A stretch of DNA of 64,000 bases. Source: a phage. The notes under the pieces are model-generated. The model ran no database searches. It saw nothing but the letters and a program-made list of their open reading frames with translations, and was not told the DNA's origin. The stretch is from the sequence record PZ534511.1; one strand, 5' to 3'. Positions 6,500-9,785 of this stretch are shown here, one piece after another. Numbering within the stretch: position 1 is the first letter of the stretch; each line of letters begins with the position of its first letter. The translations under genes were made by a program, and so were the position numbers.

Positions 6500-6548
6500 G
6501 ATCTTTTTTCCTTTGTGTTGGCGGGAAACATTCCCGCCTTTTGTGTAT

Positions 6549-6576
6549 AGTTTACTTGAATTTTGCAGCGTGTCAA
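6549..6576 (-). promoter_or_regulatory. sigma70-like promoter (TTGACA-16-TAAACT) with GGCGGGAA..TTCCCGCC 5'-UTR hairpin
   Basis: Read on the minus strand upstream of the 6104..6499 gene. Confidence 0.55.
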
Positions 6577-6583
6577 TAATTTT

Positions 6584-6982
6584 TTATTCGTGGGCACATG
6601 TTACAATGTGTTTTTTATAGCCCAGGTGGTCAGCAAGTGCCGACAAAAACTCTTCTTCGTAGATCCAGCCGTCGGCAGTGATCCCCATAGCATTTAATGC
6701 GCCCTCAAGTGCTGCGTTAGCTTTATCGTAACCGTGACCGCTCGCCTTGCCGCCAGTATAACCGTACTTATTGTTCTTGTTGTCGTGAATCCAAAACACG
6801 CAGTAGTGAGTGTTCCCGCTGGCGGCGGCATAATACCGGATCTCAGCTACTTCGTGCAAATTATTGTCATCGTCCAGGCCCACCAGATTATAAGCCTTGT
6901 AAAATCCACGATCACGGCGGCAGTTCTTGACATCAGAAAAAGAAAAGTCCGCATTATCAAAATTAAAGGTAGTGGTTTTCAT
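6584..6982 (-). CDS. hypothetical protein
   Basis: Track ORF 132 aa; RBS AAGAGGATAAAATC. Confidence 0.55.
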   Translation of the reverse strand: MKTTTFNFDNADFSFSDVKNCRRDRGFYKAYNLVGLDDDNNLHEVAEIRYYAAASGNTHYCVFWIHDNKNNKYGYTGGKASGHGYDKANAALEGALNAMGITADGWIYEEEFLSALADHLGYKKHIVTCAHE

Positions 6983-7046
6983 GATTTTATCCTCTTAGTG
7001 TCTTTTGTGCTTTTAGTGTATTTGGTGTCGGACTATATGTCAATAC

Positions 7047-7322
7047 TTATTTTTTATTAAACCAGTGGTTGATCTGTCCTTTTGTCAGGGCGCAACGATC
7101 AAGCTGTTGCAGGGTATAGCTATGACCGCGACGAAATTTATAAAGGCCTTGCCCGTTGTTAATGGTTACATCCACCCGGCAAATCACTTGATTGGTGACC
7201 ACCTGGCGAGTGTTGCGACGTACTTTGATCCCGTATGCGTTCATAAATTTATCCTCTTTACTGGTTAGTGCGGTGTTGTTCACCTTGTAGGGTAATAATA
7301 CCATGATTAACCTTGTTGTCAA
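7047..7322 (-). CDS. hypothetical small basic protein (probable start near 7244, MNAYGIKVRR...)
   Basis: Track ORF; internal ATG preceded by AAAGAGGATAAATTT RBS; promoter-like TTGACA..TATTAC upstream. Confidence 0.45.
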   Translation of the reverse strand: MTTRLIMVLLPYKVNNTALTSKEDKFMNAYGIKVRRNTRQVVTNQVICRVDVTINNGQGLYKFRRGHSYTLQQLDRCALTKGQINHWFNKK

Positions 7323-7325
7323 CGA

Positions 7326-7571
7326 CTATTTTAAATTATTTTTATGATAGAATCCACCTGCCGCCCCCCGCCAGGTTAACCACCATTTTTTTTCGTACTC
7401 TTCTTTATGTTCCAACGCTCCCGCCATAACCTTTTCAACCAGGGCGATAGCTTCCGTATCATTAATCACTACATTTCCCAGGCGAGTAGCATTACCTTTC
7501 ATTTTTGTACCTCTTCTGTAGCTGTTTACTTTATAGTGCGGACCTGCCAGGCTGGCCCCGCCAGGTTGCAA
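7326..7571 (-). CDS. hypothetical small protein (probable start near 7502, MKGNATRLGN...)
   Basis: Track ORF; internal ATG preceded by AGAAGAGGTACAAAA RBS; the N-terminal extension overlaps GC-rich hairpin sequence. Confidence 0.4.
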   Translation of the reverse strand: MQPGGASLAGPHYKVNSYRRGTKMKGNATRLGNVVINDTEAIALVEKVMAGALEHKEEYEKKWWLTWRGAAGGFYHKNNLK

Positions 7572-7610
7572 CGGTTAGCGCATCAGGTTAGAAAAATTTT
7601 TTGAAAAGTG

Positions 7611-7639
7611 TTGACAGCGGCCCCGCCAGGCGGCATAAT
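7611..7639 (+). promoter_or_regulatory. plus-strand sigma70-like promoter (TTGACA-17-CATAAT)
   Basis: Near-consensus hexamers with 17 bp spacer; faces away from the minus-strand early genes into a noncoding region. Confidence 0.55.
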
Positions 7640-7645
7640 ATACCT

Positions 7646-7745
7646 ATCGAAAGGACGGCAGGCACCGGTGACGGGGGAGACAACCACCGGGGATGGGCGC
7701 TTCATAAAATGAGAACGGTTATCATTATCATTTAAAAATTTATGC
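7646..7745 (+). ncRNA. candidate small structured RNA, unit A (GC-rich stem-loop with GAGACAA loop motif, then AT-rich hairpin and U-rich tail)
   Basis: Lies just downstream of the 7611-7639 promoter; no ORF with RBS; shares GGGAGACAAYCACCGGG and GAGAAYNNTTATCATT motifs with unit B. Confidence 0.35.
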
Positions 7746-7789
7746 AAAAAATCCTTGCCTTCTTTGTCCTGTGTGATACTATAATAACA

Positions 7790-7880
7790 AGCCGGGGCAG
7801 CAGGGGCCGGGAGACAATCACCGGGCCTGCCCGTTATTCTGCAAACGAGAATAATTATCATTCAAAATTCTAAATAAGAA
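7790..7880 (+). ncRNA. candidate small structured RNA, unit B (paralogue of unit A)
   Basis: Preceded by TTGCCT..TATAAT promoter-like sequence (7755-7785, 19 bp spacer, weaker); stem GGGCAG..CTGCCC enclosing GGCCGGG/CCGGGCC with loop AGACAATCA. Confidence 0.3.
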
Positions 7881-7945
7881 TCCCTCGCATTTAATAAATT
7901 TAATTAGCATGCTAATTACCCTCCGTAACAATTTCCTATAAAACA

Positions 7946-8160
7946 GTGCCCCATAAAATATTCCCATATAGAAATTTTAAAAATCCATTTCTGAAAACGA
8001 AAAATAGATTTCGTCCCCAAAAATTTCAGGTCGAGATCCGGAACGATTTCCAGAAAATCCGATTCAGAAAACGAAAAACAGATCGAGTACTGAGAAATTT
8101 ATCGAGAAAAATTTTCAGAAAATCCAAGCCCTGGAATGAAAAGTAGATCGAGTACCTGGA
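7946..8160. repeat. AT-rich iteron-like direct repeats (GAAAACGAAAAAYAGAT, AGATCGAGTAC x2, CAGAAAATCC x2, AAATCCATTT)
   Basis: Short imperfect direct repeats read directly; the only large noncoding stretch in the window (about 7.87-8.46 kb). Confidence 0.5.
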
Positions 8161-8467
8161 AAGCTGCACCGCAACTTCAAGATAGTGGTTAGATTGTTAC
8201 CATAGAAGGTCAAGGGTAAGTGGAGGAAGTTCTAGTAGAGGGAGGTTAGCATGTGTGGGAAATCTATAATGGTGGTCTGGAATATGGTGCAAACGATAGG
8301 ATGAGCTATTCAGCTTGTCGCGCCTACTCTGAAAAATCCATTTTAGTTTTCGATCCATTTTCTGATTTTCTAAGAATTTTAAAATATCCAGCCCGGTGAA
8401 ATATCAAAAGGAGGAAATCCATTTTAGAAATCCCCCTTATACTTGATATGCCAGGAATTTTCAAGTA

Positions 8468-8797
8468 TCAGTTGTCTTTGTTTTTAGGTTTGTACATGCG
8501 CAGAGGTATGGTCTTTGTAACATTCCATTTCCTCAACCCTTCCCAGCTCCAGTTGTGGGCGTGGTATCCGGTTATGCATGCACTACTGGAGTGATCGTAA
8601 GCATAAGAGAACGCTAAGCGCACCAGGTGGGGCCAGTCCTTCCATGGTTGTGGACCGTAAGCTTTTCTCCAACACCGACACAAACTAAATGTCTCAAGAA
8701 TAGGAAGGATAACAAATCCATACACCGCCACCAGAATAGCCAGCGCAATGATTGTCAGGAATACATACCCTGCAGTTGAAATGATGATCTCTGTCAT
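8468..8797 (-). CDS. hypothetical membrane protein
   Basis: Track ORF 109 aa; N-terminal TM segment IIISTAGYVFLTIIALAILVAVYGFVILPIL. Confidence 0.5.
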   Translation of the reverse strand: MTEIIISTAGYVFLTIIALAILVAVYGFVILPILETFSLCRCWRKAYGPQPWKDWPHLVRLAFSYAYDHSSSACITGYHAHNWSWEGLRKWNVTKTIPLRMYKPKNKDN

Positions 8798-9057
8798 TTG
8801 TCCTCCCCTTTCTTACGAATATAGATGTGAGAGCCTGCCTGTATATAAATTTCTCGACCATCTTCTGCAAAGATATGAAATACACGATCACCTTCGTACT
8901 CGATACGAGATATTTTCATAATGGTCTTTCCACCTGGGATACGGATCTCGTCCCCCACAGCGATGTTCCATGCAGATTTAAGCTTAAACATCTGCACCTT
9001 CCTTTGGGAGCTCGAACTCTGGCATAGCCATATACGCCACAACAGGGTTGTAATCAA
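8794..9057 (-). CDS. hypothetical protein
   Basis: Track ORF; 4 nt overlap with the downstream gene suggests translational coupling. Confidence 0.4.
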   Translation of the reverse strand: MITTLLWRIWLCQSSSSQRKVQMFKLKSAWNIAVGDEIRIPGGKTIMKISRIEYEGDRVFHIFAEDGREIYIQAGSHIYIRKKGEDK

Positions 9058-9229
9058 AGTAGAAATGACCGTTAATTATCCCAGTTTTGTGAGCATAGTC
9101 ACCAGATCCTGCAAGAACAACCTCGCAAACTCCGAAATCAACCTTGCCATTCTCATCTGCCATGGCTACAATATACTTTCCTAGAGGCATGTTTTTAACG
9201 CCGTCTACAAATGTCCACCCTTTGTTCAT
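8984..9229 (-). CDS. hypothetical protein
   Basis: Track ORF 81 aa. Confidence 0.4.
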   Translation of the reverse strand: MNKGWTFVDGVKNMPLGKYIVAMADENGKVDFGVCEVVLAGSGDYAHKTGIINGHFYFDYNPVVAYMAMPEFELPKEGADV

Positions 9230-9250
9230 AACTTTATCTCCTGGACTTTC

Positions 9251-9583
9251 TTAAGGTAACCAGTAAACAATTTCGCCTTTCAGTTCCATGTCGTTACCGA
9301 CATAGATTTTCCAGCCATCCATTTTAGCCACTGCAGGAGTGAAGTCCGAAGAACCACTAACCTCTTTCCAAGTCCCGTAGTCAGGTTGCCAGATATAGAA
9401 TCCACCTTCCTTGTCCCATGCTCCATATACCACATCGAGCAGGTTGCCCATTGCAACAATAGTAGGCCGTGGGAATAATACATCTACAGATGCGCCACAA
9501 TTTCGGGTATCTTTTAAGTTGCAATCCCAAAAGATGTCTGCCAGTGTGGCGGCGATAGCTTTACGTCTTTCCAATGTTACCAT
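9251..9583 (-). CDS. hypothetical protein
   Basis: Track ORF 110 aa. Confidence 0.45.
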   Translation of the reverse strand: MVTLERRKAIAATLADIFWDCNLKDTRNCGASVDVLFPRPTIVAMGNLLDVVYGAWDKEGGFYIWQPDYGTWKEVSGSSDFTPAVAKMDGWKIYVGNDMELKGEIVYWLP

Positions 9584-9593
9584 GGCACGATAC

Positions 9594-9785
9594 TCACTTG
9601 TTGTTAATAAGTTCTAAAACTTTCTGTCTTACTTTGTCAAGGTCTGTGGATTCAAAAACTGCACGATATCCCCAACTTTGCCCATAGGAGTGACTGCAAT
9701 CCCCGTAGCACCATTGCTCAATTTGATAGTATTCAAGGAACGGGTGCTGTCTAACTATGATACCATCCCGGTTAAAAATTACCAT
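9594..9785 (-). CDS. hypothetical small protein
   Basis: Track ORF 63 aa. Confidence 0.35.
   Translation of the reverse strand: MVIFNRDGIIVRQHPFLEYYQIEQWCYGDCSHSYGQSWGYRAVFESTDLDKVRQKVLELINNK

Follow-up and report, generated by a model that had tools for sequence, protein, structure and literature searches.

Paralogous promoter-leader units with predicted Fur operators border a conserved non-coding region in a Vequintavirus phage

We analyzed a 64,000 nt stretch of phage DNA (sequence record PZ534511.1; hereafter the window), which belongs to a Vequintavirus (rV5-like) phage and is 99.8% identical to phage EmilHeitz. An initial annotation had placed two paralogous, promoter-driven structured small RNAs on the plus strand at positions 7611–7880. 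Our analysis points to another explanation. The two units, which we call U1 and U2, are best read as DNA-level modules, each composed of a rightward promoter of the host sigma-70 type, a conserved GC-rich leader, and one or two putative operators for the host Fur protein ∼50–90 bp downstream of the transcription start. The two are tandem duplicates and would be modules at the edge of a conserved cis-acting region rather than stand-alone small RNAs; we give this reading a probability of roughly 0.6. The promoters and the paralogous units of the initial annotation were present; its structured small RNAs, with their AT-rich hairpins and U-rich tails, were not borne out. A further option that it had named, part of an origin, fits better than small RNAs, given that the units edge a ∼0.9 kb non-coding region that ends in iterons.

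Two promoters face rightward into the units. PU1 (TTGACA-17-CATAAT, 7611–7639, plus strand), already noted as near-consensus, agrees with the consensus at 11 of 12 positions and was the best plus-strand promoter-like site within 6500–9000 in a promoter scan. The second promoter-like sequence that had been described, PU2 (TTGCCT-19-TATAAT, 7755–7785, plus strand), is also there; its 19 bp spacer lies beyond the limits of the promoter scan, and PU2 was read from the sequence. The inferred starts are near 7646 for PU1 and 7792 for PU2. The −35 element of PU1 is kept in five Vequintavirus genomes, with CACAAT as the −10 element in the other four. PU2 is kept in Vequintavirus and, by position, in more distant relatives, where its counterpart is a promoter that we call PB (TTGCAA-17-TATATT). 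Across Vequintavirinae and Stephanstirmvirinae, PU1 and PU2 or their equivalents are conserved in position. An A/T tract, AAAAATTTTTTGAAAA (7592–7607, plus strand; repeat family D4), lies directly upstream of the PU1 −35 element, and a tract resembling it lies ahead of PU2 at 7734–7749; the tract ahead of PU1 may be an UP-like element. As the initial annotation had stated, the annotated neighbor genes all run leftward, and no plus-strand open reading frame (ORF) supported by a ribosome-binding site starts downstream of either promoter. Judged from these sequences, promoter-driven non-coding transcription toward the right, opposing the leftward gene flow, is well supported.

Each promoter is followed by a GC-rich transcribed leader on the plus strand (7646–7702 in U1 and 7791–7834 in U2). 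A 17 nt motif, GGGAGACAAYCACCGGG, is common to both leaders, and each copy precedes an AT-rich palindrome. The two copies, GGGAGACAACCACCGGG at 7675–7691 and GGGAGACAATCACCGGG at 7809–7825, are 94% identical and lie 134 nt apart (repeat family D7), in agreement with the proposed paralogy of U1 and U2. An exact 14-mer of the shared motif occurs in the window only at these two sites.

The palindromes resemble Fur boxes. Fur box 1 (AATGAGAACGGTTATCATT plus an extra ATCATT hexamer, 7708–7732) lies ∼+62 to +86 from the inferred PU1 start, which places it ∼−84 to −60 from the inferred PU2 start. Fur box 2 (AACGAGAATAATTATCATT, 7844–7862) lies ∼+52 to +70 from the PU2 start, and Fur box 3 (AATAAGAATCCCTCGCATT, 7873–7891), a degenerate copy, follows 29 bp after box 2. 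The three best matches in the window to the canonical 19-mer GATAATGATAATCATTATC (16, 14, and 14 of 19 positions) all fall within the two units: box 1, at 7711–7729, is the best site in the 64 kb, and box 2 reaches 14/19 in either of two registers offset by 6 bp (7841 and 7847). Box 2 also matches the 7-1-7 consensus in 12 of 14 positions, at 7846. It begins 22 nt after the shared motif, as in nearly all relatives; the distance in U1 is 20 nt. A matrix built from boxes of phages outside Vequintavirus ranked the sites at 7708, 7844, and 7873 at the top of the window with 24.9, 22.4, and 17.7 bits. The next site scored 11.9 bits; across 100 shuffled windows, the highest score was on average 11.0 bits.

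The Fur identity of these palindromes passes independent cross-checks against operators that had been footprinted in Escherichia coli. From 39 distinct phage boxes we derived the consensus AATGAGAATSATTCTCATT, whose core, TGAGAATnATTCTCA, departs from the 7-1-7 Fur consensus TGATAATnATTATCA at a single position in each half-site. When a matrix of all phage boxes was run over 49 kb of E. coli K-12 (595–644 kb), the top four matches scored 15.4–18.3 bits and the fifth only 7.6 bits. The four lie in fepB|entC (two), fepA|fes, and fepD|entS, and they coincide with footprinted Fur sites after a 768 bp offset between genome versions (for example, 621437 + 768 = 622205), an offset that we inferred. 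The DNase-footprinted sites of the ent-fep region are those tabulated by Chen et al. 2007 (PMC2189734). A model built from the candidates hence recognized the footprinted operators and nothing else nearby. These operators match the canonical 19-mer at 13–16 of 19 positions, the same range as the phage boxes, and box 1 of phage 4MG, TGATAATGATTATCA, is a perfect 7-1-7 Fur site.

By sequence, then, the phage palindromes are indistinguishable from footprinted E. coli Fur operators, and we read the AT-rich palindromes as predicted DNA operators for host Fur. They share with the Fur boxes of Enterobacteria the length and half-site of the palindrome (TGAGAAT/TGATAAT n ATTMTCA), the range of matches, and, at box 2, the overlapping 6 bp registers typical of E. 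coli sites; the phage matrix and the chromosomal operators recognize each other. Unlike those boxes, they occur in a virulent genome, 50–90 bp downstream of promoters, in arrays with a common spacing of 29 bp that adjoin iterons, and they control no iron-related gene. No Fur homolog was detectable by tblastn in Vequintavirinae or Stephanstirmvirinae records, and the cognate protein would therefore be the Fur of the host.

We next consider how far the arrangement is conserved. Over region 7300–8200, the window is 99.7–99.8% identical to Escherichia phages EmilHeitz (Bas49), naswa, and magaca and 90–96% identical to ∼100 further rV5-like phages of the genus Vequintavirus; no sequence similarity to the unit was found in E. 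coli genomes. Outside the genus, low-stringency blastn showed conservation of only the right half of U2 (from ∼7807), which reaches Certrevirus, Seunavirus, Mydovirus, Avunavirus, Phapecoctavirus (a different subfamily), Erwinia phage Hena1, and one Aeromonas phage. These same relatives, from at least six genera, carry one to five Fur boxes. The GAGACAA..CACC motif and the first box are separated by a fixed offset of 22 nt, and any further boxes commonly come in steps of 29 bp (offsets 22, 51, 80, and ∼109–118), all between the promoters and a GATC-bearing iteron array. Two scans of IMG/VR with IUPAC patterns were too loose, and the matches listed were mostly unrelated contigs; among those listed, blastn identified ∼10 true relatives.

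The relatives have a common architecture that faces rightward inside leftward-transcribed DNA. It often opens with a small plus-strand coding sequence (DUF7170 or no family match in other genera), followed by a promoter, PA, with a GC-rich spacer, a ∼95 nt RNA (RNA A), the motif GTAAA-N5-GTAAA, and PB. After PB come a leader, RNA B (CAURGCGGGG…GGAGACAAnCACCGG…CCUGCCCGYYAU), to which the U2 leader is homologous, and one to five AT-rich palindromes. The distal end holds a third promoter, PC, in several genera and then iterons with GATCGAGA and GAAAAATTTTTTC; GATCGAGA iterons equivalent to those of the window are present in all related genera. In Vequintavirus, U1 stands in the place of RNA A as a second PB-type unit, and a search with nhmmer found RNA A absent from the window.

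RNA A is itself a plus-strand RNA predicted to be transcribed from PA in the relatives (L004, ∼2320–2415; L005, ∼2320–2410; L244, ∼1035–1135). It has an invariant CGCC/GGCG hairpin, a covarying distal hairpin, and a pseudoknot from the loop to downstream sequence in which CCC:GGG changes to CCA:UGG. Its helices were 96.9% paired with three compensatory pairs, none of 500 shuffles reached its covariation score, and it has no Rfam match. There is good support for a structured plus-strand RNA at this locus in the relatives, though not demonstrably for the units of the window. Separately, the GTAAA-N5-GTAAA motif (e.g., TTTGTAAAGAATTGTAAAGACGCTTGCAA) is conserved ∼15–35 nt upstream of the PB −35 element in relatives (L244, L245, L246, L003, L004, L005, and L248) and is not present in the window. 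It matches the binding consensus of CpxR-P and could be a second host-regulator site.

Might the units still be what the initial annotation proposed, two paralogous promoter-driven structured small RNAs acting in trans, with the GAGACAAYCACC loop serving for recognition or as a seed, and with 3′ ends formed by the AT-rich hairpins? We consider this unlikely. The strong conserved promoters favor it, as does the existence of structured RNA A in other genera. In the leader alignment (A1), moreover, a 12 nt motif is nearly invariant across genera, with the invariant columns within GAGACAAnCAC, while its flanks are variable. A possible closing helix (AURGCG / CGYYAU, with the 5′ end pairing onto CCCGYYAU) also lends it some weight: the helix was 87.5% paired versus a shuffle mean of 85.7%, with one compensatory pair only (AU:6, GC:5), and 20 of its 136 cells were G.U pairs, which on the opposite strand would be A.C mismatches. 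Its covariation was not significant, however, since 52 of 500 shuffles reached the paired fraction and 110 of 500 the covariation score.

As discrete structured small RNAs, the units showed no clear thermodynamic signal and no terminator, Rfam or tRNA match, consensus fold, or significant covariation. Against dinucleotide shuffles, the proposed GC-rich stem-loops stood out neither in U1 (z = −0.63) nor in U2 (z = −0.90); the whole units gave z = +0.14 and −2.07, respectively. The AT-rich hairpin and U-rich tail of the initial annotation are not terminator-like: the AT segment of U1 folded with −2.2 kcal/mol (z = +0.22) and that of U2 gave z = −1.63. The units have promoters of their own and no defined 3′ end of the intrinsic kind, as no plus-strand intrinsic terminator was found within 6540–9000. 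No Rfam family matched 7600–7900 even at E ≤ 10, nor three relatives at E ≤ 1. Folding and covariation analysis across related phages, the check that had been suggested, likewise gave no clear support: RNAalifold returned an empty consensus fold for a MAFFT alignment of 25 units, covariation did not exceed that of the shuffles, and the inner helix was, by inspection, not conserved between clades. The AT-rich parts, finally, are fully accounted for by the predicted Fur boxes. Fur-repressed small RNA genes of the ryhB type resemble the units in that a strong promoter of the sigma-70 type is combined with a Fur box and drives non-coding transcription. At ryhB, however, Fur box and promoter overlap and an intrinsic terminator closes the RNA, neither of which holds for the units of the window.

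The leaders also show a toggle of two to three bases (7826–7827 in the window and homologous sites), reading CCGGGCCTGCCC or CCGGACCTGCCC versus CCGGGGGTGCCC. It occurs between close relatives in at least two genera with the 5′ half constant, and it may reflect alternative pairing or recombination between alleles.

Rather unlikely as well is that the palindromes serve as operators or iterons for a dimeric DNA-binding protein encoded by the phage, such as an origin-binding protein or an early repressor, and that their likeness to Fur boxes is coincidence or mimicry. Regular 29 bp arrays that adjoin iterons are reminiscent of phage and plasmid initiator sites, and at position four of the half-site, where the canonical base is T, the phage consensus favors G (TGAGAAT). 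Set against this, the phage matrix picks exactly the footprinted E. coli Fur operators, and some boxes, as in 4MG, are perfect canonical sites. The same palindromes recur, moreover, in Aeromonas and Vibrio phages and in T5-like phages, which belong to another family (Demerecviridae); a shared host factor would be the simpler explanation for this.

Two protein- or tRNA-based annotations of the minus strand fared far worse. The 92 aa ORF at 7583–7861 is annotated as a hypothetical protein in rV5 (ORF 198), EmilHeitz (bas49_0104), and Gotham, and also as F10B_0202, and it is open in five Vequintavirus genomes. We nevertheless regard it as very unlikely to be what the region encodes: its ATG has no Shine-Dalgarno sequence, almost every change among the genomes alters an amino acid, and the variable sites of the five genomes are spread 7:6:8 over codon positions 1, 2, and 3, with no excess at the third. 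Many records annotate nothing here, and the conservation that reaches other genera does not keep the frame (by inspection of a Mydovirus sequence). That the units are decayed minus-strand tRNA genes has next to no likelihood, even though Mydovirus record OY978796.1 annotates tRNA-Met and tRNA-Ile exactly over the homologous sequence (L003, 2420–2573), as ARAGORN finds no tRNA in that locus, four other loci, or the window, Rfam gives no tRNA match, and the annotated coordinates cover Fur box and leader sequence. The 92 aa ORF annotation and the tRNA calls of OY978796.1 are probably spurious, and database entries for this "hypothetical protein" and the tRNA-Met call would be corrected accordingly.

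Two smaller minus-strand candidates were set aside. A 30 aa ORF, MLIKFIKCEGFLFRILNDNYSRLQNNGQAR (7925–7818; ATG at 7910), is probably not coding, with differences within Vequintavirus that are almost all non-synonymous; it has a strong Shine-Dalgarno sequence, GGAGGG, 8 nt before its ATG and spans Fur boxes 2 and 3. A minus-strand promoter overlapping a Fur box (TTGAAT-18-CAGAAT) matched at 8 of 12 positions, which is below the scan threshold and at chance level.

How might promoter-leader-operator modules work? The two strong early promoters of the host type would send RNA polymerase rightward toward the iterons, and Fe2+-Fur would dock on the boxes during infection. Fur could then form a roadblock after the leader that stops or pauses the transcripts, acting as a factor-dependent 3′ end. 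Alternatively, the upstream Fur array could act as an anti-silencer or activator and prevent H-NS from occupying the next promoter and the AT-rich iterons. Either way, transcription into the cis-acting region, or its use, would be iron dependent. Titration of Fur by the replicating genomes, each of which brings three sites (as many as five in relatives), may be an alternative or a side effect.

The anti-silencing option has a parallel at E. coli ftnA, where Fe2+-Fur bound to an upstream Fur array is said to reverse silencing by H-NS, in work attributed to Nandal et al. 2010. The two cases share a series of Fur sites in tandem ahead of a promoter, within AT-rich DNA: box 1 is placed in this way relative to PU2, and in other genera the arrays lie upstream of the third rightward promoter, PC. 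Unlike the phage arrays, the ftnA sites do not have the common 29 bp spacing, and ftnA is a chromosomal iron-storage gene.

The two units form the left edge of a ∼0.9 kb gap (∼7572–8467) without convincing genes. Between the Fur boxes and the iterons lies a perfect 18 bp palindrome, TAATTAGCATGCTAATTA (7901–7918), which we read from the sequence. The iteron array (7962–8162; repeat family D1) consists of three ∼62 nt copies (…AGAAAATCC…GAAAAYGAAAA..AGATCGAGTAC) spaced 74 and 65 bp apart, with GATC sites at 8035, 8081, and 8146; this GATC-bearing array is probably an origin or another cis-acting site. Further AAATCCATTTTAG repeats occur at 8334 and 8415 (region 8334–8430). The record of phage EC152 begins inside an iteron, a start that might mark a physical terminus, and its other end does not continue that iteron.

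PU1 and PU2 are directed in tandem into the iteron region, and this order is the same in other genera. The primary origin of T7 is built from tandem promoters, 1.1A and 1.1B, that feed an AT-rich region, and lambda and T4 have transcription-activated origins. The window resembles these origins in its tandem promoters pointing into non-coding AT-rich repeats. It differs from the T7 origin in that its promoters are of the host sigma-70 type, with Fur boxes and GATC-bearing iterons between or after them, and in that there is no skew signal. We favor an origin role for the whole ∼0.9 kb region, with packaging or other cis functions also possible, because the T7 primary origin has this layout and the rV5 replisome is T7-like. 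The latter comprises a family A polymerase and a gp4-like primase-helicase (PMC3606486).

Several observations weigh against promoter-leader-Fur modules at an origin-like region. In classical Fur repression, the operator overlaps the −35 or −10 element of the promoter; the boxes overlap neither element in PU1 or PU2 and lie instead at ∼+52 to +86 from the inferred starts. The function attributed to them (Fur binding, transcription, and iron dependence) is wholly inferred. The invariant GAGACAAnCACC motif is left unexplained and could be an RNA loop or a protein site, and the G.U pairs of the closing helix, if that helix is real, hint at a plus-strand RNA structure of its own. As to replication, the GC skew does not shift at the locus, and no DnaA box (at ≤1 mismatch) was found within 6500–9500. 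The authors of the rV5 study could not locate an origin (PMC3606486). A search for the IHF consensus within 7300–8500 gave no matches either.

Similar arrays occur in phages well beyond this group. Matrix scans of IMG/VR contigs revealed arrays of three to five boxes in T5-like genomes, adjoining DnaA boxes. In T5 itself (NC_005859.1), boxes at 9552, 9656, and 9691 scored 25–31 bits and matched the canonical box at 15–16 of 19 positions. They lie, together with AAATGAGAATCATT half-sites, inside the annotated injection stop signal (iss; positions 9552–9710), and they bracket the reported shear point of first-step transfer near 9618, next to DnaA boxes. A synthetic three-box query matched 735 phage records, among them Demerecviridae (in the terminal repeats), Vequintavirinae, Stephanstirmvirinae, a jumbo Klebsiella phage, and Aeromonas and Vibrio phages. 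Near-perfect Fur-box palindromes, three to five per contig, also occur in three further IMG/VR contigs (L228, 1809–1890; L212, 1953–2110; L176, 2657–2790). L228 has three boxes of identical sequence, 30 bp apart and directly upstream of a strong promoter-like TTGACA…TATAAT.

The T5 iss and the region in the window are alike in several ways: both come from large virulent coliphages, both are sizable stretches of conserved non-coding DNA rich in repeats and palindromes, and both contain the same Fur-box palindromes. The iss differs in lying in a terminal repeat, with DnaA boxes and different direct repeats, and in its link to two-step DNA transfer. The window has rightward promoters and no known two-step injection, and it does not show the paired DnaA boxes that, with a location in a long terminal repeat, characterize a T5-type iss. 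Tentatively, Fur-operator arrays may be a shared, selected cis-element of large virulent phages that infect Enterobacterales and neighboring groups (rV5-like, phAPEC8-like, and T5-like phages and some Aeromonas, Vibrio, and jumbo phages). They would recruit Fur, an abundant iron sensor, to a key non-coding region, and this could tie origin or early-region activity to iron status, exclude H-NS, or soak up Fur.

If this were true, Fur would be a concrete candidate for the long-sought host factor at the T5 iss, because the T5 array coincides with the injection stop signal, and the old question of the partner at the injection stop would become experimentally simple. Titration of Fur would, moreover, derepress iron uptake as the phage genomes multiply. 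The detailed iss analysis by Davison makes no mention of Fur or iron, and a 2026 paper still presents the iss in terms of repeats, palindromes, and DnaA boxes; Fur does not come up in the T5 iss papers that we consulted.

Operators of the Fur-box kind are well known from iron genes of the chromosome and from a few cargo genes of prophages (stx1, sit). In the phage literature, we found them only upstream of prophage cargo, for example, the sit operon in lambdoid phages (PMC6969025). In our literature search, no paper described conserved arrays of Fur boxes in the non-coding control DNA of strictly lytic phages, and nothing relevant turned up on the transcriptomes or small RNAs of rV5-like phages. 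What we describe is a known kind of operator in a new context and arrangement. If Fur binds, a lytic phage would read or manipulate the iron status of its host, and it would do so at a region with a probable role in the control of replication or early events. This would matter for phage therapy where host tissues are short of iron, and for the auxiliary control of iron-dependent ribonucleotide reductase.

A last observation concerns the promoter spacers. The PU1 spacer contains a GC motif, GGCCCCGCCAGG (7619–7630), that is enriched in the window, with 10 matches at ≤2 mismatches versus 2.2 expected; none of 100 shuffles reached 10. Its sites include 852–863, 7364–7375, and 7540–7565 besides the one in PU1. 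Since the PA and PB spacers of other genera are occupied by similar motifs (GGCCCGGC..GGCCTGG), GGCCCCGCCAGG may be an operator for a phage regulator.

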